A stretch of DNA of 64,000 nucleotides, from the NCBI GenBank assembly GCA_965277715.1, contig OZ255836.1, positions 2,912,001-2,976,000 of the forward strand, written 5' to 3'. The notes beneath the pieces are model-generated. The model was given only the letters and a program-made list of their open reading frames with translations, had not been told where the DNA came from and searched no databases. Source of the stretch: Gammaproteobacteria bacterium. Lineage in GTDB: Bacteria; Pseudomonadota; Gammaproteobacteria; JBCCGL01. The translations under genes were made by a program, and so were the position numbers. Positions within the stretch are counted from its first letter, which is position 1. The number at the start of each line of letters is the position of its first letter. Positions 16,324-64,000 of this stretch are shown piece after piece.

Positions 16324-16334
16324 GGTTACATTTT

Positions 16335-16513
16335 AACCTAAATTCCGCAGTTGGATCGTAGCGAGGGCGTCTAAGGTGCTGAAGATGAAGTGTTTTTACC
16401 CGCATTTTAGCCATCCTGTAGTGATTCTACAGGTGAAGCTGAAATGCGGGTAAAAGCGCTTTAGATTCTGTGCATTAGGTGCTCGCAGTAGATTCAACTG
16501 CGGAATTTAGGTT
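16335..16513 (+). mobile_element. MITE-like element family A, full copy (~179 bp)
   Basis: Terminal inverted repeats aacctaaattccgcagtt...aactgcggaatttaggtt; central palindrome cctgtag-tgatt-ctacagg; related copies at 24612, 36261, 42413. Confidence 0.85.
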
Positions 16514-24548: not shown

Positions 24549-24611
24549 GGGATCAGATCTGTACCTAGGTGGCGCGATTATACGGAAAAACAAGACGCGA
24601 ACAGGCACTTA

Positions 24612-24669
24612 AACCTAAATTCCGCAGTTGAATCGTAGCGAGGGCGTCTAAGGTGCTGAAGATTAGGTT
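24612..24669 (+). mobile_element. MITE family A, internally deleted copy
   Basis: Nearly identical to the first ~52 bp of the 16335 copy, then taggtt terminus. Confidence 0.8.
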
Positions 24670-36228: not shown

Positions 36229-36260
36229 TGCCCTACGTCCTCATCGAGTTATCTTTATTT

Positions 36261-36439
36261 ATCCTAAATTCCTCAGTTGAATCTACTGCGACCACCTAAT
36301 GCACTGAATCTAAAGCGCTTTTACCAGCATTTCAGCTTCACCTGTAGAATCACTACAGGATGGCTAAAATTCTGGTAAAAACACTTCATCTTCAGCACCT
36401 TAGACGCCCTCGCTACGATTCAACTGCGGAATTTAGGTT
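36261..36439 (-). mobile_element. MITE family A, full copy in opposite orientation; overlaps the torS 3' end
   Basis: Reverse complement of 16335-16513 with few substitutions. Confidence 0.85.
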
Positions 36440-42307: not shown

Positions 42308-42412
42308 TGGAGAATTAGTACACTGTCTACCTTAATAAGGATGTCGGAAAACGACAACACTGACTGGTACGCCATCTACCAACTCAGTAAAGCCTACGCC
42401 AATATCACATTA

Positions 42413-42497
42413 AACCTAAATTCCGCAGTTGAATCTACTGCGACCACCTAATGCGCTGAAGGCGCCCTCGCTACGATTCAACGGCGGAATTTAGGTT
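42413..42497 (-). mobile_element. MITE family A, internally deleted copy with both termini
   Basis: aacctaaattccgcagttg...caacggcggaatttaggtt. Confidence 0.8.
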
Positions 42498-51035: not shown

Positions 51036-51524
51036 TTATGAATTTGCAGTGTGTTTGTTGTTGAGTGCCGCCAGTATGGTTGGGTGTACAAAGCCACTGA
51101 CATCGCCATTCAAACTGGCGATTTCCCGCACCATACTTGAGGAGAGGAATGCATATTCCTGCGCGGCAGAAATAAAAACAGTTTCAACACCAGGGCACAT
51201 TTGGCGGTTCAGGCCCGCCAACTGCACCTCGTATTCAAAGTCAGACACTGCCCGCAGGCCACGGACAATGACCTTTGCCTGCCACTGCACGGCACACTCA
51301 ACGAGCAGGCCCTTAAAGCTTTTCACTTCAACATTCGGTAAATCCTGAACGACCTCACGCGCCAGCATCTCACGCTGCTCCAGCGCAAAAAAAGGGCGCT
51401 TATCTGGATTGTAAGCGATGGCGACAATAACGCGATCAAACATCTTCGCTGCACGTCTCGCCACATCGATATGCCCATTGGTAATCGGATCAAAAGTGCC
51501 GGGATAGATTGCTGTAATTGTCAT
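51036..51524 (-). CDS. coaD: Pantetheine-phosphate adenylyltransferase
   Basis: YPGTFDPITNGH, RGLRAVSDFEYE, SSSMVRE. Confidence 0.96.
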   Translation of the reverse strand: MTITAIYPGTFDPITNGHIDVARRAAKMFDRVIVAIAYNPDKRPFFALEQREMLAREVVQDLPNVEVKSFKGLLVECAVQWQAKVIVRGLRAVSDFEYEVQLAGLNRQMCPGVETVFISAAQEYAFLSSSMVREIASLNGDVSGFVHPTILAALNNKHTANS

Positions 51525-52156
51525 ACCTGCCTACTGTCATTTCATCAGCGGCAAGATTGCATGATTTCACCGTTTTCGACAACTCATTTAGTTAGAATTA
51601 ATTTAGGGCACGCCCTCGACGTAAGCACTCATTTATCAACCGTGTCGGCATACGAATTTGGGACTGAGTGGCACTGATAGCAGTAAACGCCATTAATATT
51701 TCCGGCGCAGCACTGTGACTAAACGCCAGCTTGATAAAAACTGGTTTAAAAAAGCAAGAGGGTCAGGCTTGAATGGCACTTCCTTAAGCTGTAAGTATTT
51801 GAAGTAATTACAAAAAAAGCTGGTTCTATGGTAGGTTATTTGTTGCCAACACAAATACCCTTGATCCCACAGGAACCAGCCATCATGCAGAGTAATGTAA
51901 AAGTCAACATTCTTCAACGTCGCATCAAAAGCCGAGCTCAATCCTCGGATGCATTGAGTTTTTATCACTTGCTGACATCCTCTCAGTTACTTACGAAACT
52001 GGAAGAATTACAACCGGATTTTCGAGCGCGTCGCTATCCTCCTCTAGACACCTTATCGCTGTTTTTATACCAAACAATGAGTGCAGATCAGCCCTGCCAA
52101 CAAGTTGTCAACACACTCGCTGTACAGCGATTAAGTGAAGGTTTATCAGTGAGTAA
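51179..52156 (+). repeat. 978-bp direct repeat copy A (coaD 5' part, promoter, IS4 left part)
   Basis: Matches 53756-54733 at constant offset 2577 with ~18 substitutions (hand count). Confidence 0.92.
51771..52156 (+). pseudogene. Truncated IS4-family element (left end and transposase 5')
   Basis: gaatggcacttccttaagc terminus; ORF 51828-52205 nearly identical to the N-terminus of 54405-55850. Confidence 0.88.
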
Positions 52157-52223: not shown

Positions 52224-52704
52224 TTAAGTCCCGGTCTTGAGGCGTTCATGAAATTGTTGGAAGAGTTTGTTTCGTGCTGAATGGCGTATTTCAACGGCTT
52301 CGTTGTCTGTCATTTCACGGGCAAATTCATCCCGTTTTTTAAAGGTCATCCCTTTTTTCAAGTATTGACTGGGGCGAGGGAGTGAGCGGAATTTCTCATA
52401 GGGTGTCATCCTATCTTCATAACGATATTTTTTGTGTTGTTTACCTTTGTCATCGGTCACGGTGGAAGGGAAATAGCAGGGGTGGTGGAAGTTGAGATAA
52501 CGGTGGAGAGGGCCGCTGTTAAGATCAGTAAATTGTTCAGCATACTGTTGTGGTATATGGCTGTAGCCATAGAGTTTGCGGATAACAGACCCATTTTTGC
52601 TTTCCACCAACCCGTTGTCGTTACTGTGTCGAGGACGTGATTTGGTGAGTTTAATACGCAGTTTTTCCAGTAGTTCAGCCACACTGTAGTTGATGTATTC
52701 ACCC
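52224..52704 (-). pseudogene. C-terminal fragment of an integrase-core (rve) transposase
   Basis: GEYIN...TKSRPRHSNDNGLVESKNGSVIRK...TPYEK; now in frame behind the RAYT. Confidence 0.75.
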
Positions 52705-53702
52705 CCAAAAAGGAAAAGGGGGCAATCGTATTTAATATTTTTCAAACGGTTGCAAACCTGCTCAAACACGCCCTTCAAGCTGCCGTCTGACAGCCCACTC
52801 TTTACATAATCAATTGCAGGAGAAAGGCTACTAACACGACTATATACAAACATATCAACCAGCGTTTTTAACGGCATATCTCCCAATTGCTGACAACAAT
52901 ATATCGCTACTTTACGAGGCAGATTCGCCCGTTGTCTCCCCCGCTGTCGCGTAAGTACATCACTCGCGTTAACGCCAAACACCGCTGCCACTGCATCGAC
53001 TATAGCTGCACCGTTTGGCTTGTCCGTCACAATACGGGACAAGTCCCCCGATATGTGCATCGACTCCCGGTTTTCGGCAATATACGTCTTGAAGGATTTG
53101 TCACCCAGTATCGTCGCCACATTGCCTTTGTTATAAAAACGGCCAATGTCCTCATCAATACCTTGACCAACATATGCCTTATAAGCAACGTAACGTTGTT
53201 TAGCACCGAGTGCACTATGGGTTGCCTCTCGATACAACCATTCCGGTGCTTTGGCTTGGTTGATGTAAGCGTGGTAACTCGACCAGGAATAGCTATCGAG
53301 CTTATCCGCTGTTACACCCTTTACTTCTATTGGGTTACGATGAATGTAACGGCTTAAGGGTAATAAGTAGTCGTCTGCATCCACAATAATCGCTTTATAA
53401 CGACTGCGAAAAAGAGGCCCATCCATGCGTCTAAGCCGGTTGTAGCGTTGTGTGTAGATACCATTGATATGCCGCATGATGCGATCCAGATTAGCACGAG
53501 GGGTTTCGATCAATAGATGATAATGATTACCCATCAAACAGTAAGCGTGGGTGTAGGCATCAAAGCGTTTATGTGCTTCATCGAGCGTTTGTAGAAATGC
53601 TTGGTAGTAAATTTCGCCATGAAAGATGGTCTGTCTGGCTTTGCCACGATTCATAACGTGGTAGTAGGCATTTTCGTATTGTATTCGAGTAGGTCTAGGC
53701 AT
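52224..53702 (-). CDS. REP-associated-type tyrosine transposase (Y1/HUH) with C-terminal DnaA_C-like HTH, reading through into the rve fragment
   Basis: MPRPTR...YHVMNRG, HAYCLMGNHYHLL (HUH), YIHRNP, YSWSSY; native part ends near 52720. Confidence 0.85.
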   Translation of the reverse strand: MPRPTRIQYENAYYHVMNRGKARQTIFHGEIYYQAFLQTLDEAHKRFDAYTHAYCLMGNHYHLLIETPRANLDRIMRHINGIYTQRYNRLRRMDGPLFRSRYKAIIVDADDYLLPLSRYIHRNPIEVKGVTADKLDSYSWSSYHAYINQAKAPEWLYREATHSALGAKQRYVAYKAYVGQGIDEDIGRFYNKGNVATILGDKSFKTYIAENRESMHISGDLSRIVTDKPNGAAIVDAVAAVFGVNASDVLTRQRGRQRANLPRKVAIYCCQQLGDMPLKTLVDMFVYSRVSSLSPAIDYVKSGLSDGSLKGVFEQVCNRLKNIKYDCPLFLFGGEYINYSVAELLEKLRIKLTKSRPRHSNDNGLVESKNGSVIRKLYGYSHIPQQYAEQFTDLNSGPLHRYLNFHHPCYFPSTVTDDKGKQHKKYRYEDRMTPYEKFRSLPRPSQYLKKGMTFKKRDEFAREMTDNEAVEIRHSARNKLFQQFHERLKTGT

Positions 53703-53752
53703 CGTTTAAATTTATACTATTTTGAAAATATTAAATAGGATTGACCCCTTTT
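52714..53752. mobile_element. RAYT gene bracketed by ~32-bp inverted repeats ending in GGGG(T/G)CA
   Basis: aaaagggggcaatcgtatttaatatttttcaaa (52714-52746) vs reverse complement of tttgaaaatattaaataggattgacccctttt (53721-53752). Confidence 0.8.
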
Positions 53753-54101
53753 ATTCAGTTTCAACACTAGGGCACATTTGGCGGTTCAGGCCCGCCAACT
53801 GCACCTCATATTCAAAATCAGACACTGCCCGCAGGCCACGGACAATGACCTTTGCCTGCCACTGCACGGCACACTCAACGAGCAGGCCCTTAAAGCTTTT
53901 CACTTCAACATTCGGTAGATCCTGAACGACCTCACACGCCAGGATCTCACGCTGCTCCAGCGCAAAAAAAGGGCGCTTATCTGGATTGTAAGCGATGGCG
54001 ACAATAACGCGATCAAACATCTTCGCTGCACGTCTCGCCACATCGATATGACCATTGGTAATCGGATCAAAAGTGCCGGGATAGATTGCTGTAATTGTCA
54101 T
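53751..54101 (-). pseudogene. coaD: 3'-truncated second copy of coaD
   Basis: First ~115 codons of coaD, cut 3 bp from the RAYT inverted repeat. Confidence 0.9.
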
Positions 54102-54733
54102 ACCTGCCTACTGTCATTTCATCAGCGGCAAGATTGCATGATTTCACCGTTTTCGACAACTCATTTAGTTAGAATTAATTTAGGGCACGCCCTCGACGTA
54201 AGCACCCATTTATCAACCGTGTCGGCATACGAATTTGGGACTGAGTGGCACTGATAGCAGTAAACGCCATTAATATTTGCGGCGCAACACTGTGACTAAA
54301 CACCAGCTTGATAAAAACTGGTTTAAAAAAGCAAGGGGGGCAGGCTAGAATGGCACTTCCTTAAGCTGTAAGTATTTGAAGTAATTACAAAAAAAGCTGG
54401 TTCTATGGTAGGTTATTTATTGCCAACACAAATACCCTTTATCCCACAGGAACCAGCCATCATGCAGAGTAATGTAAAAGTCAACATTCTTCAACGTCGC
54501 ATCAAAAGCCGAGCTCAATCCTCGGATGCATTGAGTTTTTATCACTTGCTGACATCCTCTCAGTTACTTACGAAACTGGAAGAATTACAACCGGATTTTC
54601 GAGCGCGTCGCTATCCTCCTCTAGACACCTTATCGCTGTTTTTATACCAAACAATGAGTGCAGATCAGTCCTGCCAACAAGCTGTCAACACACTCGCTGT
54701 ACAGCGATTAAGTGAAGGTTTATCAGTGAGTAA
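53756..54733 (+). repeat. 978-bp direct repeat copy B
   Basis: See copy A. Confidence 0.92.
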
Positions 54734-55913
54734 TACGTATACAGGGAGTTATTGTAAAGCGCGACAAAGGCTGCCAACCCCCCTCGTCTCAGGGCTTGCC
54801 CGTTGTACAGGCGAGTGTGTGGCGAATGAAGCGGCCAGTCACTGGCACTGGCAAGGGCGTTCAGTTAAATTGGTTGACGGCACCACTGTGACAATGCCCG
54901 ATACGCCTGAAAATCAGGTAGTTTATCCGCAACAGTCAGGCCAGCAAGTGGGGATCGGTTTTCCTCTTTGTCGCTGGGTAGGAATTATTTGTTTAGCCAG
55001 TGGTGGTGTTCTCGATGCGGCAATGGGTCCTTTTAAAGGTAAGGGAGCGGATGAGCAAACGTTATTGAGAAAAATACAAAATGCGCTTAAACCGGGTGAT
55101 ATTGTGGTGGGTGATGCCTATTTTGCGGGTTATTTTTTTCTAGCAAACCTTATAGAGCAAGGAGTAGACGGTGTATTTGAGCCGCATGGTGCGCGGCGTA
55201 AATCCACAGATTTTCGAGAAGGCAAAAGGCTTGGATCGAAGGATCACCTGATTTGTTATACAAAGCCCAAGAAGAGACCAGAGTGGATGAGCGAAGAAGC
55301 CTATGAAGCGGCTGCTGATGAAGTGGTTATACGTGAACTGAAAGTGGGTAAAAAACTGTTGGTGACAACGTTGTTATCAGTTAAATCGGCGTCTAAAGAG
55401 GCGCTTAAACAGCTCTACAAAGAACGCTGGCATGTCGAACTTGATTTACGCCATATAAAAACGACAATGAAGATGCACACCTTCCGTTGTAAGACGCCAG
55501 AAATGGTTGAGAAGGAAATGTGGGTACACATATTAGCTTACAACCTTATTCGCTTATTAATGGCGCAATCTGCCTTACTAGTGGACATACTGCCTCGACA
55601 GATAAGTTTTAAGCATACGTTACAAATTTGGGTAGCGTATCGTTATCAGAAAGGCGGTAGCCCTCTGGGTAGTGATAAGGTGTTGGCGCTATGTGCGTTG
55701 ATTGCAGAAAACTGTGTGGGTAATCGACCGGGGCGTATTGAACCAAGAGTGGTTAAACGAAGACCCAAACCGTATCCTTTATTGATGCAGCCAAGGGACG
55801 TGGCCAGAAGTGTTGTTAAAAAATATGGCCATCCCAAAAAACAGAAATAGGTCATTTACAATGAAAGTACTTCCATATTTTTCATGTACTTAGAGCTTAA
55901 GGAAGTGCCATTC
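54348..55913 (+). mobile_element. Complete IS4-family insertion sequence
   Basis: TIRs gaatggcacttccttaagc / gcttaaggaagtgccattc; flanking ~10-bp duplication ggggcaggct. Confidence 0.9.
54462..55850 (+). CDS. IS4-family DDE transposase
   Basis: LVDGT, GDAYF, YKERWHVELDLRHIK (Y-R-E-K), RIEPRVVKRRPK. Confidence 0.92.
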   Translation: MQSNVKVNILQRRIKSRAQSSDALSFYHLLTSSQLLTKLEELQPDFRARRYPPLDTLSLFLYQTMSADQSCQQAVNTLAVQRLSEGLSVSNTYTGSYCKARQRLPTPLVSGLARCTGECVANEAASHWHWQGRSVKLVDGTTVTMPDTPENQVVYPQQSGQQVGIGFPLCRWVGIICLASGGVLDAAMGPFKGKGADEQTLLRKIQNALKPGDIVVGDAYFAGYFFLANLIEQGVDGVFEPHGARRKSTDFREGKRLGSKDHLICYTKPKKRPEWMSEEAYEAAADEVVIRELKVGKKLLVTTLLSVKSASKEALKQLYKERWHVELDLRHIKTTMKMHTFRCKTPEMVEKEMWVHILAYNLIRLLMAQSALLVDILPRQISFKHTLQIWVAYRYQKGGSPLGSDKVLALCALIAENCVGNRPGRIEPRVVKRRPKPYPLLMQPRDVARSVVKKYGHPKKQK

Positions 55914-56100
55914 GGGGCAGGCTTATTATTCACCATACAACGACTAATACGTATAAAAACAGTGATTTCCAGCAAGAAATATAAGAAATAACTGCCTTGA
56001 TGGGATGGACCCGCTCCCTTTGAATCGGCATCACAATGTGCCAAGATTGAGCGGTAACACAACCAATCTATTATCACCTAATAAAGGTAGGAGCGAGTCC

Positions 56101-57126
56101 ATGAACGAGAATATCACCCGATTGGGTATTGATCTAGCCAAAACTATTTTTCAAGTGTGTGGTGCTAATAAACACGGTAAAGTGGTGTTTAATAAAAAAC
56201 TCAAACGCGATCAGCTACCGTCTTATATCGCCAATGTACCGGCCTGTGAGGTGGTGATGGAAGCGTGTGCGACGTCCAGTTATTGGTCGCAGGTTTTCAC
56301 ACGCTACGGCCACACCGTCAAACTCATTAACCCAGCCTATGTACGCCCTTACGTTAAAACAAACAAGAACGATGCAGCGGATGCAGAGGCCCTGTGTGAA
56401 GCAGCCTCACGTCCGAGTATGCGATTTGTTCAGCCCAAAACACCCGACCAACAAGACAGCCAATTATTCCACCGGGTGCGCAGTCGGCTAGTGTCAAAAC
56501 GGACGAGTTTAAGTAATCAGATAAGAGGGTTACTGGGTGAGTATGGGCTGATTATTCCGGTGGGTATTCACCACGTTCGCCAGCACTTGCCTGCGCTTTT
56601 AGAGGATGCTGAAAATGCCTTGTCAGCCACAGCACGTGAAGTGTTCAGTGCTTTGTATGATGAACGAGTGGAGATTGATAAACGCGTAACACACTACACA
56701 AAACGGTTAACCCAGTTGAGCAACCAGCATGAGCGCTGTCAACAATTAAAAACACTGCCGGGTGTAGGGCCTCTGGTCGCCACTGCCTTGTTTACAGCAA
56801 TGGGCGATCCGGGTTTTTATAAAAACGGGCGTGAGTTTTCCGCCTTTTTGGGTCTCGTTCCTCGTCAATATAGTTCGGGGGGCAAAACACAACTCAAAGG
56901 TATCAGTAAACGCGGGGACGAACACGTGCGCACTTTGTTGATACAGGGGGCGCAAGCGGCATTAAGTCGAATGCCTAAACACGATGATGGGCTAAGTCGT
57001 TGGGCCTGTCGTGTCAAAGCACGTCGGGGCCATTGTGTGGCGGCGGTGGCATTGGCCAATAAGCTCGCCAGAATTAGCTGGGCGGTAGCGGCTAATAATA
57101 CAACTTACGTGCATAAAACAGTTTAA
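56101..57126 (+). CDS. IS110-family DEDD recombinase
   Basis: GIDLAK, MEAC, KNDAADA, GLVPRQYSSGGK, VALANKLAR. Confidence 0.95.
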   Translation: MNENITRLGIDLAKTIFQVCGANKHGKVVFNKKLKRDQLPSYIANVPACEVVMEACATSSYWSQVFTRYGHTVKLINPAYVRPYVKTNKNDAADAEALCEAASRPSMRFVQPKTPDQQDSQLFHRVRSRLVSKRTSLSNQIRGLLGEYGLIIPVGIHHVRQHLPALLEDAENALSATAREVFSALYDERVEIDKRVTHYTKRLTQLSNQHERCQQLKTLPGVGPLVATALFTAMGDPGFYKNGREFSAFLGLVPRQYSSGGKTQLKGISKRGDEHVRTLLIQGAQAALSRMPKHDDGLSRWACRVKARRGHCVAAVALANKLARISWAVAANNTTYVHKTV

Positions 57127-57189
57127 TAACATCGTTGAAGATTTCTTACCACGAGGTAGCGAAAGAGCAGTAAAGGGTATAACAGGTTA

Positions 57190-57335
57190 AACCGGCTCAG
57201 ACAGAACCTGGAGGGGGTCATGGTCTTCACAGACCGATTGCTTGATGAGGTGTCTGAGCACGGTTCCCATTATGGCTCTGGACGGATAAACAAATACAAT
57301 CCGTCCTATCGAGAAGCCGGATATATGACTGCTAA
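57190..57335 (+). ncRNA. Predicted bridge RNA/seekRNA of the IS1111 element
   Basis: Two stem-loops with internal loops carrying target-matching (gggggtca, ttgcttga) and donor-matching (cccatta, atatatga) segments; RNA ends approximate. Confidence 0.7.
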
Positions 57336-57458
57336 CCTTATTTACTGTGTCTGCTCTGAACGCTAAAAAATGAATGAACGATTAAAAAATTGTTGAATTT
57401 AACTGCGGGTCCATATATGACCCCTTTTTTTCATTCTGCTATGGTGTATTATTGAGAA

Positions 57459-57803
57459 ATGAAAGAAAAAACACCTATACGGGTTACTCTTCGACTGCCC
57501 GCTGATGTGCATGAAGAGATAGCCTCCGCATCCTCCTTGGCTGGCCTTAGCCTGAATCAAGAGATAGTGTCACGCCTCAAGGAAACGCTTAGGCAAGATA
57601 AATTCTTGGTCGATTCCAATGAATGGATAAATAATCACACGGCTACTTATGATGATTTGTTAGCCTTATATGAAACAGCTACTGTAGAGGTGGAGGAGTG
57701 GAAAGAAAAAGACTACAGCGTTACAACTGCTATGCAAGGTTTTGAGGCTGTAAGCGATATTAAAAACCGCCTTGCCGCTATAGAGAAAAAGCTAGATAAA
57801 TAG
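57459..57803 (+). CDS. Arc-family ribbon-helix-helix DNA-binding protein
   Basis: RVTLRLPADVHEEI...SLNQEIVSRL. Confidence 0.85.
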   Translation: MKEKTPIRVTLRLPADVHEEIASASSLAGLSLNQEIVSRLKETLRQDKFLVDSNEWINNHTATYDDLLALYETATVEVEEWKEKDYSVTTAMQGFEAVSDIKNRLAAIEKKLDK

Positions 57804-57820
57804 CTTTAGGAGCGTGACTA

Positions 57821-58657
57821 GTGGAAATAGCCTATAGCACTATTGAGAAATCCCCAGTATCCATCCATGTCTTTTGCAAAAAGTCTGACGCTGAAATAGA
57901 AAAATTGCGGAGATCATTGTTATGTCCCAAGTGTGAAGTTAAGGCGTGGTTCCGCAAAAAATCAAAAGATGGTAAATCAGCCTGCTTTAATGCGTATCAT
58001 GCAGAAGGCTGTACTGCATCGACACAAAAGCATCAAATAAAAAATAATACCGAAGTTGTCGAAGACGTAAGGCAAATCATTACAAACAATGATACGGTGG
58101 ATTTAAATTTCGTTGTGTATAGCAGTCCAATTGCTGATGGTGAAAATACGTTTCAACAGTCACTTACTATTAAAAACGTCGATTCTGCAAGTTCTCGACA
58201 CAGTATTACACCAGCAATAGAAAGAAACCAAACAAGAAGGTTATCCTCTATATTAAAGCTACTTACAGGCTCGGAGGATTTTGCCAAATCTAATATCAAG
58301 ATTGACACAGGGCCACCAGCTAAACATCCATATTATGCTAGAAATCTGTTTGTGAGCTTTGATGCAATAATCGAAGAGCATATAGGGAAATGGCGCGGTT
58401 TTTGGGGTGTGATCAGTCATGCCAATGAAGAAGTTACATGGTTAAATATTGCAAACAGTTTAGATGTTAGCATCCCTATATCAGCTATTAAGGCTTATTT
58501 GTTAAAAACGTTTAGGATAATGGAAGCAGAAGATTTGGCTGGGGCGCAAGTGCTAGTCTTTGGCTATCTCAACGTTTCAAAAACCAAAGCTAAAAAATAT
58601 TTCATAAAGCTTCGGAATAATAATCCTGCTCATATTTTTCTCAAACTGGACAACTAA
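57821..58657 (+). CDS. Hypothetical protein with N-terminal Zn-finger-like motif
   Basis: CPKC...C..AYHAEGC; AT-rich; RBS aggag. Confidence 0.75.
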   Translation: MEIAYSTIEKSPVSIHVFCKKSDAEIEKLRRSLLCPKCEVKAWFRKKSKDGKSACFNAYHAEGCTASTQKHQIKNNTEVVEDVRQIITNNDTVDLNFVVYSSPIADGENTFQQSLTIKNVDSASSRHSITPAIERNQTRRLSSILKLLTGSEDFAKSNIKIDTGPPAKHPYYARNLFVSFDAIIEEHIGKWRGFWGVISHANEEVTWLNIANSLDVSIPISAIKAYLLKTFRIMEAEDLAGAQVLVFGYLNVSKTKAKKYFIKLRNNNPAHIFLKLDN

Positions 58658-58663
58658 CCTCAA

Positions 58664-60631
58664 ATGGAAATAGAAAAGAAATTTAAAGTCCAAGTCCAAA
58701 AGGATCATCTGTCTAAGGTGGCTTCTGGAAAGCCAATAATCGGGTTGTGTGAACTTATTTGGAATGCTTTTGACGCTGACGCAAGCAATGTAAACGTTTA
58801 TTTTAATGAAGGTCAATTTGGTGTTGACCGGGTAATTATTTCCGACGATGGCACCGGCATTAAATATGGTGAAGCTGAAAAATTATTCATTGGTTTAGGT
58901 GGTTCGTGGAAGTCCAGTGGCAAGCAGACAGAAAAAGGGCGGTTTTTACACGGCCAAGAGGGTCAGGGGCGCTTCAAAGCTTTTACCATTGGGCGTGTAA
59001 CTGATTGGAAAGTTGTTTATAAAGAAGACAACAAGTTCTATGAATACACGATTGAAGGTAAAGCGGAGGCTATTGACGAATTTTTATTAAGTTCTAATAA
59101 AGATTCAGACCAACGCAAAACTGGTGTAACTGTCGAAATAACTGAAATCAATAAAAATTTCCATATCCTTGATGAAAACAAGGCACTTGAAAAACTTGCA
59201 CCAGTCTTTGCCTTGTACCTTAAAAATTATAGTGGGGTAATCCTCCGTATAGGTAGTCAAAAGCTGGATGCTTCAATAGCTATCAAGGATATTAAAAGTA
59301 TTGATCTGCCGGCATTGAGTATTGAAGATAAGGAACATTTTGTAAGCGTTGAAATAGTAGAGTGGAACGGTATTTCAGCGCGCGAAATATGGTTTGCTGA
59401 TTCAAAAGGCTTTCCACTTGAATCTTATGATAAACAAGTTCGAGGTATTGGAGAGAGTGGATTCAGTGCCTATATAAAATCGGACTACTTCCGTGAATTA
59501 AAAAACAAGGATTTATTATCATTACGCGACCTTGAAGCAAGCATTAGCGCCTGCTGCGAGACAGCAATCAATGCGGTCAAAGAACACTTCTTATTAAGGG
59601 CCTTGGAACAAGCAAGAAACCAAATTGACGAATGGAAAGATGAAGAAATCTACCCGTTCAAGGGTGAACCTGTGTCCCCTATTGAAGATGCTGAAAGAAA
59701 AATTTTTGATATTGTCGCCATTAATGTAAATAAAAGCCTTCCAGATTTTAAAAATTTAAATAAAAAATCTAAACAGTTTCAGTTAAGAATGCTGAAACAG
59801 GCGATAGAAAAAAGTCCTGAAGACCTTCAGATCATTATGACTGAAGTTCTAAATCTACCAAAAAATACACGGGAAAGTTTAGCTGAATTACTTCAAGGAA
59901 CAAGTCTTTCGTCAATTATTAATGCATCTAAGGTGGTGTCAGACCGAATAAAATTCATAACCGGTTTAGACCAGCTTGTTTTTAATCACAAAGACAACTT
60001 AAAAGAACGTACACAACTGCATAGAATCTTAGCTCAAAACACTTGGATTTTTGGTGATGGATTTACTTTGTCGGTTGACGATCAAGCACTAACTGAAGTT
60101 CTTAAACAACATGCTTCTTGCTTGGAAAATGATGTTGTAATTAACGATCCGGTAACAAGAGTTGACGGTCGTCGCGGCATTGTTGACTTGATGTTATCAA
60201 GACAACTGCCCCGAAACCGTGCCGACGAATTAGAACATTTAGTTATAGAGTTGAAAGCCCCTAAAGTTGTTATTGGTAAAAAGGAAATTGACCAGATAGA
60301 AAGTTATGCTTTTGCTGTTTCTAATGATGAACGATTTAGAAGTCTTAATACAAAGTGGGACTTCTGGATCATTTCAAATGACTATGATGATTATGCAGAA
60401 CTCAAACTTGAGAATGACAGCTTTGAATATGGCGTGATTTATAAAACCAGTAAAAAGCGTAATGTTACTATCTGGCTAAAAACATGGTCTGAACTAATTG
60501 CTGAAAATAAACACCGTCTTGAATTTATTCGTGACAAGCTAAATTATAATGTCGATAAAGAAAGCGCAATGAATCACCTGAAATCGACATATTCTGAATA
60601 TATTGATGGTGTGGTTTTGGAAAATAAATGA
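58664..60631 (+). CDS. GHKL/MORC-like ATPase fused to a C-terminal PD-(D/E)xK nuclease
   Basis: ELIWNAFDA, DDGTGI, GQEGQGRF; C-terminal VDLML...VIELKAP...QIESYA. Confidence 0.85.
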   Translation: MEIEKKFKVQVQKDHLSKVASGKPIIGLCELIWNAFDADASNVNVYFNEGQFGVDRVIISDDGTGIKYGEAEKLFIGLGGSWKSSGKQTEKGRFLHGQEGQGRFKAFTIGRVTDWKVVYKEDNKFYEYTIEGKAEAIDEFLLSSNKDSDQRKTGVTVEITEINKNFHILDENKALEKLAPVFALYLKNYSGVILRIGSQKLDASIAIKDIKSIDLPALSIEDKEHFVSVEIVEWNGISAREIWFADSKGFPLESYDKQVRGIGESGFSAYIKSDYFRELKNKDLLSLRDLEASISACCETAINAVKEHFLLRALEQARNQIDEWKDEEIYPFKGEPVSPIEDAERKIFDIVAINVNKSLPDFKNLNKKSKQFQLRMLKQAIEKSPEDLQIIMTEVLNLPKNTRESLAELLQGTSLSSIINASKVVSDRIKFITGLDQLVFNHKDNLKERTQLHRILAQNTWIFGDGFTLSVDDQALTEVLKQHASCLENDVVINDPVTRVDGRRGIVDLMLSRQLPRNRADELEHLVIELKAPKVVIGKKEIDQIESYAFAVSNDERFRSLNTKWDFWIISNDYDDYAELKLENDSFEYGVIYKTSKKRNVTIWLKTWSELIAENKHRLEFIRDKLNYNVDKESAMNHLKSTYSEYIDGVVLENK

Positions 60632-61287: not shown

Positions 61288-61379
61288 GGGGGTCAGGCTT
61301 ATTATTCACCATACAACGACTAATACGGATAAAAACAGTGGTTTCCAGCAAGAAATATAGGAAATAACTGCCTTGACCC
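61288..61379 (+). repeat. ~93-bp GGGGTCA-bounded unit, copy 2
   Basis: gggggtcaggc...gccttgaccc; direct repeat of the unit at 55914. Confidence 0.85.
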
Positions 61380-61539
61380 GAATGGCACTTCCTTAAGACG
61401 TAAGCAACTGATAGTAAAGAGTTTATTTATTCTTTCTAAGAAAAAAAATGATATTTTGAAAGTTGCCGCCAATGATAACCGGGATAGTTTTACAAATATT
61501 GCTTTCAAGAACCGGTGTTTGTCAAGGTAGTTGTCCGTT

Positions 61540-62622
61540 TTACTGTGCTACTTGCTTTTCAATTCCATTGTGCTTTTGTCTCATGGCCAAGCCTTCCTTT
61601 TCCGGGTTTAACCACACCCCCGATACCGGTTCGAGGTGTTTAATATCCTGGCTCCAGCGTTCAGGGTGTTTGGCCTTTGCTTGTTCATAAACTGCTTTTC
61701 TGGCTGCCAGTATCGCGTGATCTTCGCCTTTATGACGCGAGGCTGGTGTCACAAACCCAATGCCGCTATGGCAATGAGAGTCGTTGTACCATTGCACAAA
61801 TCCATGCACCCAGTTTCGGGCAGAGGCTAAACTATCAAATGGCTTTGACGGATAGGCAGGCGTGTATTTTAAGGTTCTAAACAGACTTTCTGAATAAGGA
61901 TTATCATCGCTTACCGATGGCCTGCTAAACGAAGGTATCACACCCAACCATTGCAGTTTTGCTAACATGGTAGCACCTTTCATCGGGCCACCATTATCCG
62001 CGTGTAATACCAATTGACTCTGGCTGCATCCCTCCGCTAAACAGGCACGCTGGATCAGCGCCGCTGCCAGATCAGCCGATTCACTGTCATGCACTTCCCC
62101 GGCAACAATTTTACGACTGTAAATATCCATCATCATGTAAAGCCGGTAAAACCACCCGGTTATGTTCGATTTCAAAAAGGTAATATCCCAAGACCACACC
62201 TCGTTTGGCCTTGATGCCAGGTAGCTGTTAGGTTTGTGCCGTTTTTTAGGCGCCGCCGCCTTACCTCGCCGCTGCAGTTGGTTTTCCGACTTTAACACCC
62301 GATAGAAGCTTGACTCTGATCCAATATACACACCTTCATCCGCCAATTTGGGCACAATTTGCGAGGGGGGTAGCGCTTGGTATTTCGCTTCATTACAAGT
62401 GGTGACGATCAATGCCCGCTCTTCTGCTGTGAACTTATTACCAGGCGCCTGTCGATGAGCGCTGGGTCTGCCATCAGCACGGACAGTACCCGCGTTTGCC
62501 CAGCGTCGGTACGTCTTAGGGTGTCACTCAAGCACTTTGCACGCTTTGCTTAATGTAGCGCCAGCGACAACGGCCTCTTTGATTAAACGGATACTATTTT
62601 GGCGATCTGAATGGCAGGTCAT
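61540..62622 (-). pseudogene. IS3 orfB (integrase core) with premature TGA
   Basis: WSWDIT, LHADNG, SESLFRTLKY; in-frame TGA at 62524-62526. Confidence 0.8.
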
Positions 62623-63113
62623 TCGTCCTCTCCCTCCCCCCAGATCGCTTGGGCCTTTTTTCTAAGCACCAGCAAAGCGGCTGTTTCGGCTAACGCTTTC
62701 TCCTTTCGGTGCAGGTCTTGTTCGAGACGTTTAATACGTTTATCCGCTTCTCTACGACTGGTTTGTAAACGTTTCGTTTGGGCGCGATCCCAGTCATTGG
62801 CTTGTTCACAAGCCATTCGCCATGCCTTAATCTGATCAGGGTACAAACCACGATGACGGCAATAAGCTGAAAGGTCTGTTTCGCTTAATGACGCACTTTC
62901 CAGAACCGCTGAAAACTTATCCGAAGAACCCCAACCTGCTGGTGTCAAATCGCCATCTGGCATGAGTTCGCCTTTCGCTCTTGCTGGGGCTCGCCAACTA
63001 TAAAGCGTACCTTGTGCAATGCCTTCTTCTTTGGCTAACCGGGAAATTGTCTGATTGTTCGGCGGCAGCATCTTCTTTAAAACAGCGGCCTTTCTTTCTA
63101 TTGGATAACGCAT
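62619..63113 (-). CDS. IS3 orfA (HTH)
   Basis: LAKEEGIAQGTLYSWR, KALAETAALLVLRKK. Confidence 0.85.
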   Translation of the reverse strand: MRYPIERKAAVLKKMLPPNNQTISRLAKEEGIAQGTLYSWRAPARAKGELMPDGDLTPAGWGSSDKFSAVLESASLSETDLSAYCRHRGLYPDQIKAWRMACEQANDWDRAQTKRLQTSRREADKRIKRLEQDLHRKEKALAETAALLVLRKKAQAIWGEGEDE

Positions 63114-63270
63114 ACCACTCTCTCTTTGCCTCCTGTAATAACTTATTGAATCCCAATTTAGGGAGGGGGACAACTACCCTGACACAGGGGGGAACCATAT
63201 GCCAAGTTATCTGAACCAAGCACATAATACCAATACTTTCAAATACTTACAGCTTAAGGAAGTGCCATTC

Positions 63271-63464: not shown

Positions 63465-64000
63465 GGTTCTTCCCCGGTTTGTGTGAGGTTATAGTATTTC
63501 ATCCCCCCTTTGCTATTGAGAGACTCCGGTGCTATCGAGCCTTGAAGAACACTACAGCCAGCTCCTGGGCCTGACAGATGACTGGTCAGTGACATCAGTT
63601 GATTTAGACCCTTCAGGGTTAAAAGTATCCATTTCGTTGGCATTTAGCGGCAACCACGGCCCTTGTTCGCACTGTGGCGAAGTGAGTCCGTTCTATGATC
63701 ACCGTTCACAAGAGCGATCCTGGAGACACCTGGATACTATGCAGTTTGAAACGCGCCTACACAGTCGCATTCCCCGAGTAAATTGTCTGGAGCATGGTGT
63801 TAAAAGTATGGTGTTACCCTGGGCAAGCAAGCGCAGTCGTTTTACGTTGTTGTTTGAATTATTTTCCATCAGGGTGTTGCAAGCCTCACGTAGCGTCGAA
63901 GAGGCGCGTAAGTTACTGGGGCTTAGCTGGAACGCAGTGGAAGCCATCAAAGCCCGCGCTGTCGAGCGGGGACTTTCGCGTCGGGAATTGGTGACAATTG
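63465..64000 (+). mobile_element. ISL3-family element (left part); transposase from 63529 runs off the window
   Basis: GGTTCTT terminus; CSHCG zinc finger, RSWRHLD, PRVNC..HGV, LPWA..SRFT..FE. Confidence 0.88.

Follow-up and report, generated by a model that had tools for sequence, protein, structure and literature searches.

The DNA analysed here, referred to as the window, is a 64,000-nt stretch from a gammaproteobacterium (contig OZ255836.1 of assembly GCA_965277715.1, positions 2,912,001 to 2,976,000 of the forward strand), and its subject is an insertion sequence (IS) with a putative guide RNA encoded behind its transposase gene. Window positions 55998-57417 are a complete, ordinary IS1111-family insertion sequence of 1420 bp, delimited by an empty paralogous site, by an end architecture kept in relatives and by contig breaks in four sequencing runs; the element and all its features given below are on the forward strand. 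From the left, it consists of the 7-nt terminal extension TGATGGG (55998-56004), whose initial TGA is common to the target and is called the core here; the subterminal inverted repeat ATGGACCCGC (56005-56014), with an ATGGAC... start that is kept in relatives; an 86-nt leader with a ribosome-binding site; a gene for a transposase/recombinase of 341 amino acids (56101-57126); a non-coding region; and the right subterminal inverted repeat GCGGGTCCAT with the 3-nt extension ATA (57405-57417; repeat 57405-57414, ATA 57415-57417). On its left stands the target flank CTGCCT (55992-55997), formed by terminal bases of an 87-nt repeat (55914-56000), and on its right the target half-site TGACCCC (57418-57424), followed by a T run. 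A sister of that repeat at 61290-61376, 95% identical to it, holds the uninterrupted paralogous site ctgcct/tgaccc (ctgccttgaccc, 61368-61379).

The trinucleotide TGA is present at both junctions, so that sequence alone fixes the element's ends to within 3 nt. Within this ambiguity the ends TGATGGG and ATA, which a preliminary description of this DNA had read from the same empty site, are favoured because IS1111 elements extend 7 nt on the left and 3 nt on the right beyond their subterminal repeats (PMC11187229, Introduction) and because contigs of other runs begin at 55998. Relatives show the same pattern: an ATGGAC-type subterminal repeat with 7-nt left and 3-nt right extensions was recognized in 129 of 161 sequences, the other 32 being dropped because they had no end pair at one mismatch or fewer in 11 nt. 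The subterminal repeats of the window element are perfect over 10 bp, which is one base below the 11-13 bp usual for the family (PMC11187229) and inside the wider range of 7-17 bp (PMC11208160). Non-coding DNA amounts to 291 nt downstream of the transposase gene versus 103 nt upstream, the longer downstream region being the one expected of an IS1111 element. At the right end, GGGTC of the subterminal repeat and GACCC of the target half-site (57407-57423) make up a terminator-like hairpin, followed by CTTTTTTT and a T run to 57433; this hairpin is a product of the landing site only, and could stop read-through out of the element.

The transposase carries the Pfam domains DEDD_Tnp_IS110 (PF01548, residues 8-148, E 5e-19) and Transposase_20 (PF02371, residues 213-292, E 4e-23), and scores 342 bits against the NCBIfam model NF033542, 'IS110 family RNA-guided transposase', whose cut-off is 140. 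Its C-terminal motif GLVPRQYSSG (residues 251-260, with S259-G260) fits the GL-P----S(t)G motif given for IS1111 transposases (PMC11187229, section 6). The D/E/D/D residues lie in the motifs GID (D11), MEA (E54) and DAADA (D91, D94), and identical residues are found in the ISCro4 chain, across a weakly matching N-terminal segment (13 bits). D11, E54, D91 and D94 probably correspond to D11, E60, D102 and D105 of IS621 (PMC11208158). Domains, motif and ends all bear out the assignment to the IS1111 type made in the preliminary description. The open reading frame is intact and aligns with relatives over residues 1-341; the closest protein among 185,579 species genomes is 69% identical, and neither the species-genome nor the metagenome protein scan returned a near-identical copy of the element, 69% amino acid identity being the best value.

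For comparison, the protein scans supplied 80 loci from species genomes, at 45-69% identity, and a further 80 from metagenomes, at 47-54%. The 129 sequences with recognized ends yielded 102 unique non-coding regions, of which 92 had at least 8 nt of both flanks and 81 had distinct targets; anchors for the donor guides were missing in three of the 81, leaving 78 that were scored. In most members of this IS1111 clade (L001-L160) TAATGGN is the left extension, and most of the right flanks begin with TG. The closest group comprises L001-L003, from a metagenome-assembled genome (MAG) of a sponge symbiont, and L004, L010, L036 and L037. Its members share TGATGGG or TGATGAG, ATA and, with the exception of L036, the right flank TGACCCC; their left flanks differ.

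The 3' RNA and its guides

With a folding energy of -90 kcal/mol (z = -4.45), the 291-nt non-coding region is more stable than every one of 200 shuffles. From its sequence and that of its relatives, the region is predicted to encode a conserved two-loop RNA at about 57179-57347; a profile of 46 relatives finds this bridge RNA (seekRNA) core at 57179-57347 (nhmmer, E 4.5e-27) as its sole match in the window. The predicted target-binding module (57196-57258) is closed by stem P1 (57196-57202/57252-57258), all seven pairs of which are changed on both sides among relatives, and contains the short inner stem P2 (57207-57209/57248-57250) and a hairpin between the two target guides (57222-57226/57231-57235). 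The donor loop is closed by a 3-bp stem (57260-57262/57330-57332), with stem P5 (57274-57276/57316-57318) and a further hairpin (57280-57287/57299-57306) between the donor guides.

Among the 46 relatives, the RNAalifold consensus holds 25 pairs, 19 of them with changes on both sides, and 92.1% of pair cells are paired, counts that may be flattered by the choice of 46 out of 66 representatives less than 80% alike, since the 20 omitted by eye were in part near-duplicates and in part sequences with displaced regions (e.g., L094, L118, L121 and L153). When partners were slid by 1-3 columns, 26-39% of cells were paired; the covariation score was 0.597 as against 0.108 or less in controls, and none of 500 shuffles reached it. 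The preliminary description had proposed covariance across homologues as a check, and its coordinates and strings proved exact throughout, including the outer stem given as 57195-57203/57251-57259 and the hairpin just described; its placement of a target-binding and a donor-binding loop is borne out by the consensus structure and by the covariation of guides with flanks described next.

The right-target guide GGGGGUCA (DNA GGGGGTCA, 57213-57220) complements the top strand of TGACCCC at 57418-57424 with no mismatches, as had been noticed from the sequence at the outset. At this place the exact reverse complement of right-flank bases 1-7 is found in 38 of 81 relatives, compared with 155 of 6458 foreign guide/flank pairs (2.4%). 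The left-target guide, UUGCU followed by the core UGA (DNA TTGCTTGA, 57238-57245), is in top-strand sense, and its position is confirmed by relatives: the last five bases of the left flank plus the first two of the right flank occur there exactly in 37 of 81 elements (foreign pairs, 115 of 6456, or 1.8%). Wrong-strand and offset controls matched in 1-2 of 81 elements with their own flanks and in about 1.3-1.5% of foreign pairs. The two target-guide matches lie some 24 nt apart and at a constant distance from the right end across the 81 elements. Sequence anchors taken from the close group were tried and discarded after they failed in distant relatives; they were replaced by tests needing no anchor and later by tests that took the donor guides as anchors.

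Within the close group, the right-target guide and the stems are kept while the left-target guides differ. The place homologous to 57238-57245 reads CTGGCTGA in L001 and L002, AGATTTGA in L004 and GATACTGA in L036 and L037, in each case identical over 8 nt to the element's own left flank plus TGA; in L010 it reads TGGCTGA, identical over 7 nt.

The donor guides behave in the same manner toward the element's own ends. The 3' donor guide AUAUA+UGA (DNA ATATATGA, 57321-57328) equals the terminal bases of the right end plus the core, as expected from its earlier identification with the predicted circle junction, and AU followed by the element's own 3-nt right extension is in place in 78 of 81 relatives, against 82 of 4820 foreign extensions (1.7%). 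In the 5' donor guide CCCAUUA (DNA CCCATTA, 57266-57272), the bases CCCAU are complementary to ATGGG in the left extension. At position 6 of that extension a Watson-Crick pair is seen in 77 of 78 relatives, C-G being exchanged for U-A in some, and at position 7 in 46 of 78, with G.U in 15 more; for neither position did any of 5000 permutations reach the observed value. In the close group, CCCAU at the place homologous to 57266-57272 becomes UUCAU where the left extension ...GGG becomes ...GAG. We assign the window's guides as we do because guide/flank covariation in relatives confirms each position. Their order, with the top-strand complement 5' and the bottom-strand match 3', is that published for IS1111 seekRNAs, in which the two overlap at the insertion point (PMC11187229, sections 4 and 9).

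At the second core position, both sense guides have the base of the target: it matches the right flank in 71 of 78 relatives versus the left extension in 15 of 78. In the clade as a whole, the two sense-strand guides read G here, like the target, and not A, like the donor. Just past the core, the 3' donor guide agrees with the third base of the target in 41 of 78, a value reached by none of 5000 permutations. Some other copies of the element (two contigs in run X3 and four in X6) are without one G of the five-G run at 57213; the remaining GGGGUCA is a full match to TGACCCC.

A candidate promoter would be completed upon joining of the two ends. The putative -35 hexamer TTGAAT (57393-57398) is separated by 17 nt from a -10 composed of TA (57416-57417) and TGAT (55998-56001), which is complete only in the circle; in the window the -35 scores 4/6 and the -10 scores 5/6, versus 4/6 for the -10 in the integrated state. 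Across the circle junctions of relatives, the hexamer matches TATAAT at 6/6 in 46 of 81 and at 5/6 in 30 of 81, whereas only 9 of 81 integrated right junctions match at 5/6 or better. The -35 scores at least 4/6 in 61 of 81 relatives, compared with 0-17 of 81 at control spacings. The potential for a junction promoter thus appears to be conserved among relatives.

We consider it very probable that the window element is an intact IS1111 element and that a bridge RNA (seekRNA) from its 3' end directs its DEDD/serine recombinase. In the proposed mechanism, the 5' side of the target loop, GGGGGUCA, would pair with the top strand of the right half-site TGACCCC, and its 3' side, UUGCU+UGA, would be meant for the bottom strand of the left half-site and core; in the donor loop, CCCAU would pair with ATGGG of the left terminal extension and AUAUA+UGA with the bottom strand of the right end and core. 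By analogy with ISEc11, ISPa11 and IS621, the element would excise as a circle, its abutted ends would create the promoter (-35 TTGAAT, 17 nt, -10 TA/TGAT), the transcript would supply both recombinase and RNA, and the complex would recombine the circle junction ATA/TGA with a ...TGACCCC site. Strand exchange would take place at the common core, within a tetramer that holds both loops (PMC11208158). It is from these better-known elements that we infer expression and binding of the RNA, the positions of its ends, the circle and the activity.

Copies, the target repeat and its surroundings

The stretch was found in 11 listed runs from six studies, and eight of these runs, from sponge metagenomes and a sample coded 'organism A', hold at least half of the sampled words; none of them is recorded as RNA. 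We compared contigs of four runs with 55800-57620. Several copies with the same right flank are present in these runs. On the left, 55998 is the exact starting point of contigs in X1 and X3, and those in X7 start no more than two bases before it; in X3, a 1968-nt contig has 739 nt of different DNA, with ...CTATGCC at its end, followed by 1230 nt of the element. Rightward contigs keep TGACCCC and diverge at 57424-57428 into at least four different sequences (e.g., a 2452-nt contig of X6); the flanks of other copies had been named as a check along with the preliminary description. Uninterrupted paralogous forms (...CTGCCTTGA/CCCCTTTT...) occur in all four runs, matching the repeat up to 56000 and continuing with CCCCTTTT.

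Single contigs of X3 and X6 join unrelated DNA at 57197 and 57203, the 5' edge of the RNA outer stem, the X3 DNA being an IS4-type end followed by GCCTGACCCCTTTTATTCT. These contigs may represent 5'-truncated copies or modules of RNA and right end without a transposase gene.

TGACCCC, the right half-site, forms the core of a short repeat (TGACCCCTTTT...) that recurs in the DNA of the sponge-associated host and in inverted repeats around a gene resembling those of REP-associated tyrosine transposases (RAYTs; REP, repetitive extragenic palindromic). The 12-nt motif TTGACCCCTTTT, located at 53741, reproduces 11 bases from the right flank of the element together with the T standing before TGA in the empty site, and TGACCCCTTT(T)AT recurs in loose ends of three runs. 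The RAYT-like gene is a 492-codon frame at 52224-53702 on the minus strand with a Y1_Tnp domain (PF01797, E 2e-14); its protein scores 54.7 bits against NCBIfam NF047646, below the cut-off of 80. Inverted repeats of 33 nt (52714-52746 and 53721-53752), 91% alike and containing GGGGnCAAT / ATTGACCCC, bracket the initial 320 or so codons of the gene, and a gene flanked by a repeat in inverted orientation is the arrangement that defines RAYTs (PMC2817692). The 106-nt stretch with the sister repeat shows no folding beyond that of shuffles (z = -0.46, 65/200). The predicted ideal target TTGCTTGACCCC does not occur in the window, where three matches at two mismatches fall below the 6.7 expected by chance.

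On these sequence comparisons the link to RAYTs appears real but thin. The preliminary description had the element programmed against the RAYT repeat motif of this island. The right half-site and the shared motif TTGACCCCTTTT speak for that part of the proposal; the left half-site and the sub-threshold score of the RAYT-like gene do not.

The RAYT-like gene also has a DnaA_C-like helix-turn-helix, and its frame crosses the downstream repeat into an IS3-like fragment, yielding the chimeric 492-codon reading frame. It is carried on the 1.6 kb between the two copies of a 978-bp duplication (51179-52156 and 53756-54733), which are 98% identical and include the left end of an IS4-family element. 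This element is complete at 54348-55913, encoding a 481-amino-acid DDE transposase (NF033592) between terminal repeats beginning GAATGGCACTTCC; the occurrence of GAATGGCACTTCC after the sister repeat had been considered as a REP-like motif and was rejected, being the terminal repeat of the IS4-family element. The 10-bp direct repeat GGGGCAGGCT stands at both of its flanks, and this IS4-family element therefore inserted in the same GGGG(T)CAGGC motif family as the IS1111 element.

The last 13 kb of the window are a mosaic of nested insertion sequences. Minus-strand IS3-like genes with HTH_Tnp_1 and rve occupy 61380-63270, between two IS4-type ends; further right, 63529 is the start of an ISL3-family transposase gene (63529-63999). 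Directly to the right of the IS1111 element, 57459-60631 contains three genes, encoding a small Arc-like DNA-binding protein, a 278-amino-acid protein without a family match and a 655-amino-acid HATPase_c_3 protein that weakly resembles BbrUII/HgiDII restriction enzymes (46.6 bits, where the cut-off is 550); this stretch may be a defence-type cassette. Elsewhere in the window, a second and unrelated intergenic repeat family with the core CCTAAATTCCGCAGTTGAATC occurs at 16329-16391, 24606-24668, 36257-36308 and 42409-42460, forming two pairs that are 92% identical.

Weighing the alternatives

A number of observations weigh against reading the window copy as an intact, RNA-guided element. We infer expression of the RNA, its ends and its binding by the protein from sequence. 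Rfam 15 gives no family match on 55500-58000 at E values up to 1, and blastn and nhmmer find no second copy of the RNA or of the left end in the window, so that the copy there is single. The runs were compared as assembled contigs and not as reads, and they attest the presence of the element and its junctions without giving a copy number; the window's own sample may be among the best-matching runs. None of 81 relatives has an exact complement to the whole 7-nt left extension, and we therefore redefined the 5' donor guide to extension positions 3-7: of CCCATTA, previously taken as the near-complement of the left end, CCCAU stands, and the terminal UA is unsupported as a guide. The donor-loop closing pair is G-C in 45 of 46 sequences and A.C in the window (A at 57260), which could weaken the window RNA. 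Finally, UUGCU+UGA against CTGCCT+TGA leaves two mismatches in the 7-mer of five left-flank and two core bases, with CTGCCT fitting the guide at only three of five positions. This is background level, given that foreign flanks have two mismatches in 43.5% of cases and three in 46.4%, while relatives with their own flanks have none in 37, one in 29, two in nine and three in three of 78. The earlier assignment of 57238-57245 to the left side of the target is upheld in its position and not in its fit to this copy, in which only the right half-site TGACCCC appears clearly programmed.

Could the guide/flank matches be chance, the region being only a structured 3' untranslated region or terminator? 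Each guide is just 5-8 nt long, the left-target match in the window is at chance level and the RNA itself is a prediction; against this stand the guide/flank covariation over 81 elements with controls at 1-2 of 81, the constancy of guide positions relative to a covarying structure, and the experimental demonstration that the IS1111 family is RNA-guided (PMC11187229), and we hold such coincidence to be extremely improbable. Rather unlikely, in our judgement, is that the element is of the right kind and this copy of it decaying or misplaced, sitting at a non-cognate variant of its site with a weakened RNA and perhaps moving inefficiently. The two left-guide mismatches and the A.C pair would both fit such a copy, as would the X3 copy, seen on one loose end, whose left flank ATGCC/TGA fits UUGCU at four of five positions if G.U is allowed. 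That better fit suggests that the cognate site is the one-base-shorter variant GCC/TGACCCC, which is also present in the window, reversed, at 61289-61298. Yet the full-length reading frame is intact, the subterminal repeats are perfect, and 12 of 78 relatives likewise have two or three left-guide mismatches. Further, no variant letter is listed at 57260 or 57238-57245 among the copies in the four runs, whose flanks differ, and these features are thus common to all of them and not a private defect. We put forward, as no firmer than tentative, that a small IS1111 clade, made up of the window element, the three copies of the sponge-symbiont MAG and one copy each from Porticoccaceae and further MAGs, keeps the guide half for TGACCCC and swaps the other, and that the window element is programmed for GCC/TGACCCC and landed in GCCT/TGACCCC with two left-guide mismatches.

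The nature of the target is a separate matter from RNA guidance. It is a real possibility, if a somewhat doubtful one, that the target is not a REP sequence mobilized by a RAYT and is instead some other abundant short motif. Such a motif could come, for instance, from terminator-like hairpins, as their 3' half, or from one end of a small non-autonomous element, and the RAYT-like gene would simply lie close by. TGACCCC with its T run resembles the descending arm of a terminator-like hairpin, an IS4-family element used the same motif and has its direct repeat GGGGCAGGCT there, the stretch with the sister repeat folds no better than shuffles, and the RAYT-like protein falls short of the NF047646 cut-off. 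The bracketing of that gene by inverted repeats in the RAYT-defining arrangement (PMC2817692) argues for a RAYT-type target instead, as do the match of TTGACCCCTTTT to the right flank and empty-site T and the recurrence of TGACCCCTTT(T)AT in loose ends.

Relation to known elements and meaning

The window element resembles several IS110-family elements by description. Insertion into REP sequences by elements of this family was reportedly noted by Tobes and Pareja in 2006. The closest parallel is ISPa11, an IS1111 element of Pseudomonas aeruginosa for which Siddiquee et al. (2024) showed a seekRNA (PMC11187229). As described there, ISPa11 likewise has a DEDD transposase, subterminal inverted repeats and 7/3 extensions, a long non-coding region downstream of the transposase gene, which in ISPa11 yields a transposase-bound RNA (sections 4, 8 and 9), a top-strand complement 5' of the bottom-strand match, and a repeat as its target, namely a REP sequence. 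It differs in its target motif, and the window RNA is predicted only; the likeness is one of description, not of sequence. ISEc11 and ISXne4 are a pair of relatives that keep the RNA stems and swap target-matching bases (PMC11187229, section 10), as the window element and its close relatives appear to do; unlike that pair, whose targets share 3 of 13 bp in that account, the window clade varies one half-site and retains TGACCCC.

With IS621, as reported (PMC11208160, PMC11208158), the window element shares the predicted use of two loops that read both strands of target or donor around a common core, and probably a composite active site of DEDD and serine residues. A promoter at the circle junction is a further likeness, the one in the window element being a candidate only, and the tendency of the post-core base of the 3' donor guide to match the target recalls the handshake guides of IS621. 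Unlike the window RNA, the IS621 RNA is described as lying in the left end, upstream of the gene, with the guide order reversed; the IS621 protein is related mainly in its C-terminal domain (E 1.4e-11, residues 177-332), and long subterminal repeats are absent from IS621 as reported. The IS110-family elements ISPpu9 and ISPpu10 of Pseudomonas putida insert in REP sequences and have a small RNA gene downstream of the transposase gene (PMC12288879, PMC8450116). They are also described as having extra copies of the RNA gene without the transposase gene, to which the contigs joining other DNA at 57197 and 57203 can be compared as a hint of orphan copies only; again the likeness is by description, not by sequence.

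The known mechanism is unchanged by our findings. For IS1111, the literature already reports guidance by RNA, the placing of that RNA on the 3' side, natural redirection by guide swaps and the targeting of REP by ISPa11 (PMC11187229); a promoter at the junction is likewise published for the family, as are donor and target loops and handshake bases (PMC11208160, PMC11208158), and bridge RNAs are predicted in the right end of 93% of IS1111 elements (Durrant et al., PMC11208160). For the consensus of the window clade, we found no description in the literature searched, supplementary target lists and covariance models aside.

The window element is a previously uncatalogued IS1111 element, and comparative data suffice to assign all four of its guides with confidence. 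In terms of annotation, such RNAs become readable directly from raw sequence if the 7/3 rule for the ends is used. The family-level by-products of the comparison are a two-internal-loop consensus, a conserved TATAAT across the circle junction, and sense guides that carry the target's second core base. The window copy itself is a natural insertion with a poorly matched left guide. If the proposed clade behaviour is true, target choice in the clade would be driven by the right-target guide and the core, and the element could spread through a drifting RAYT-type repeat family; the repeats would then serve as shared landing pads, since an IS4-family element was drawn to the same motif.

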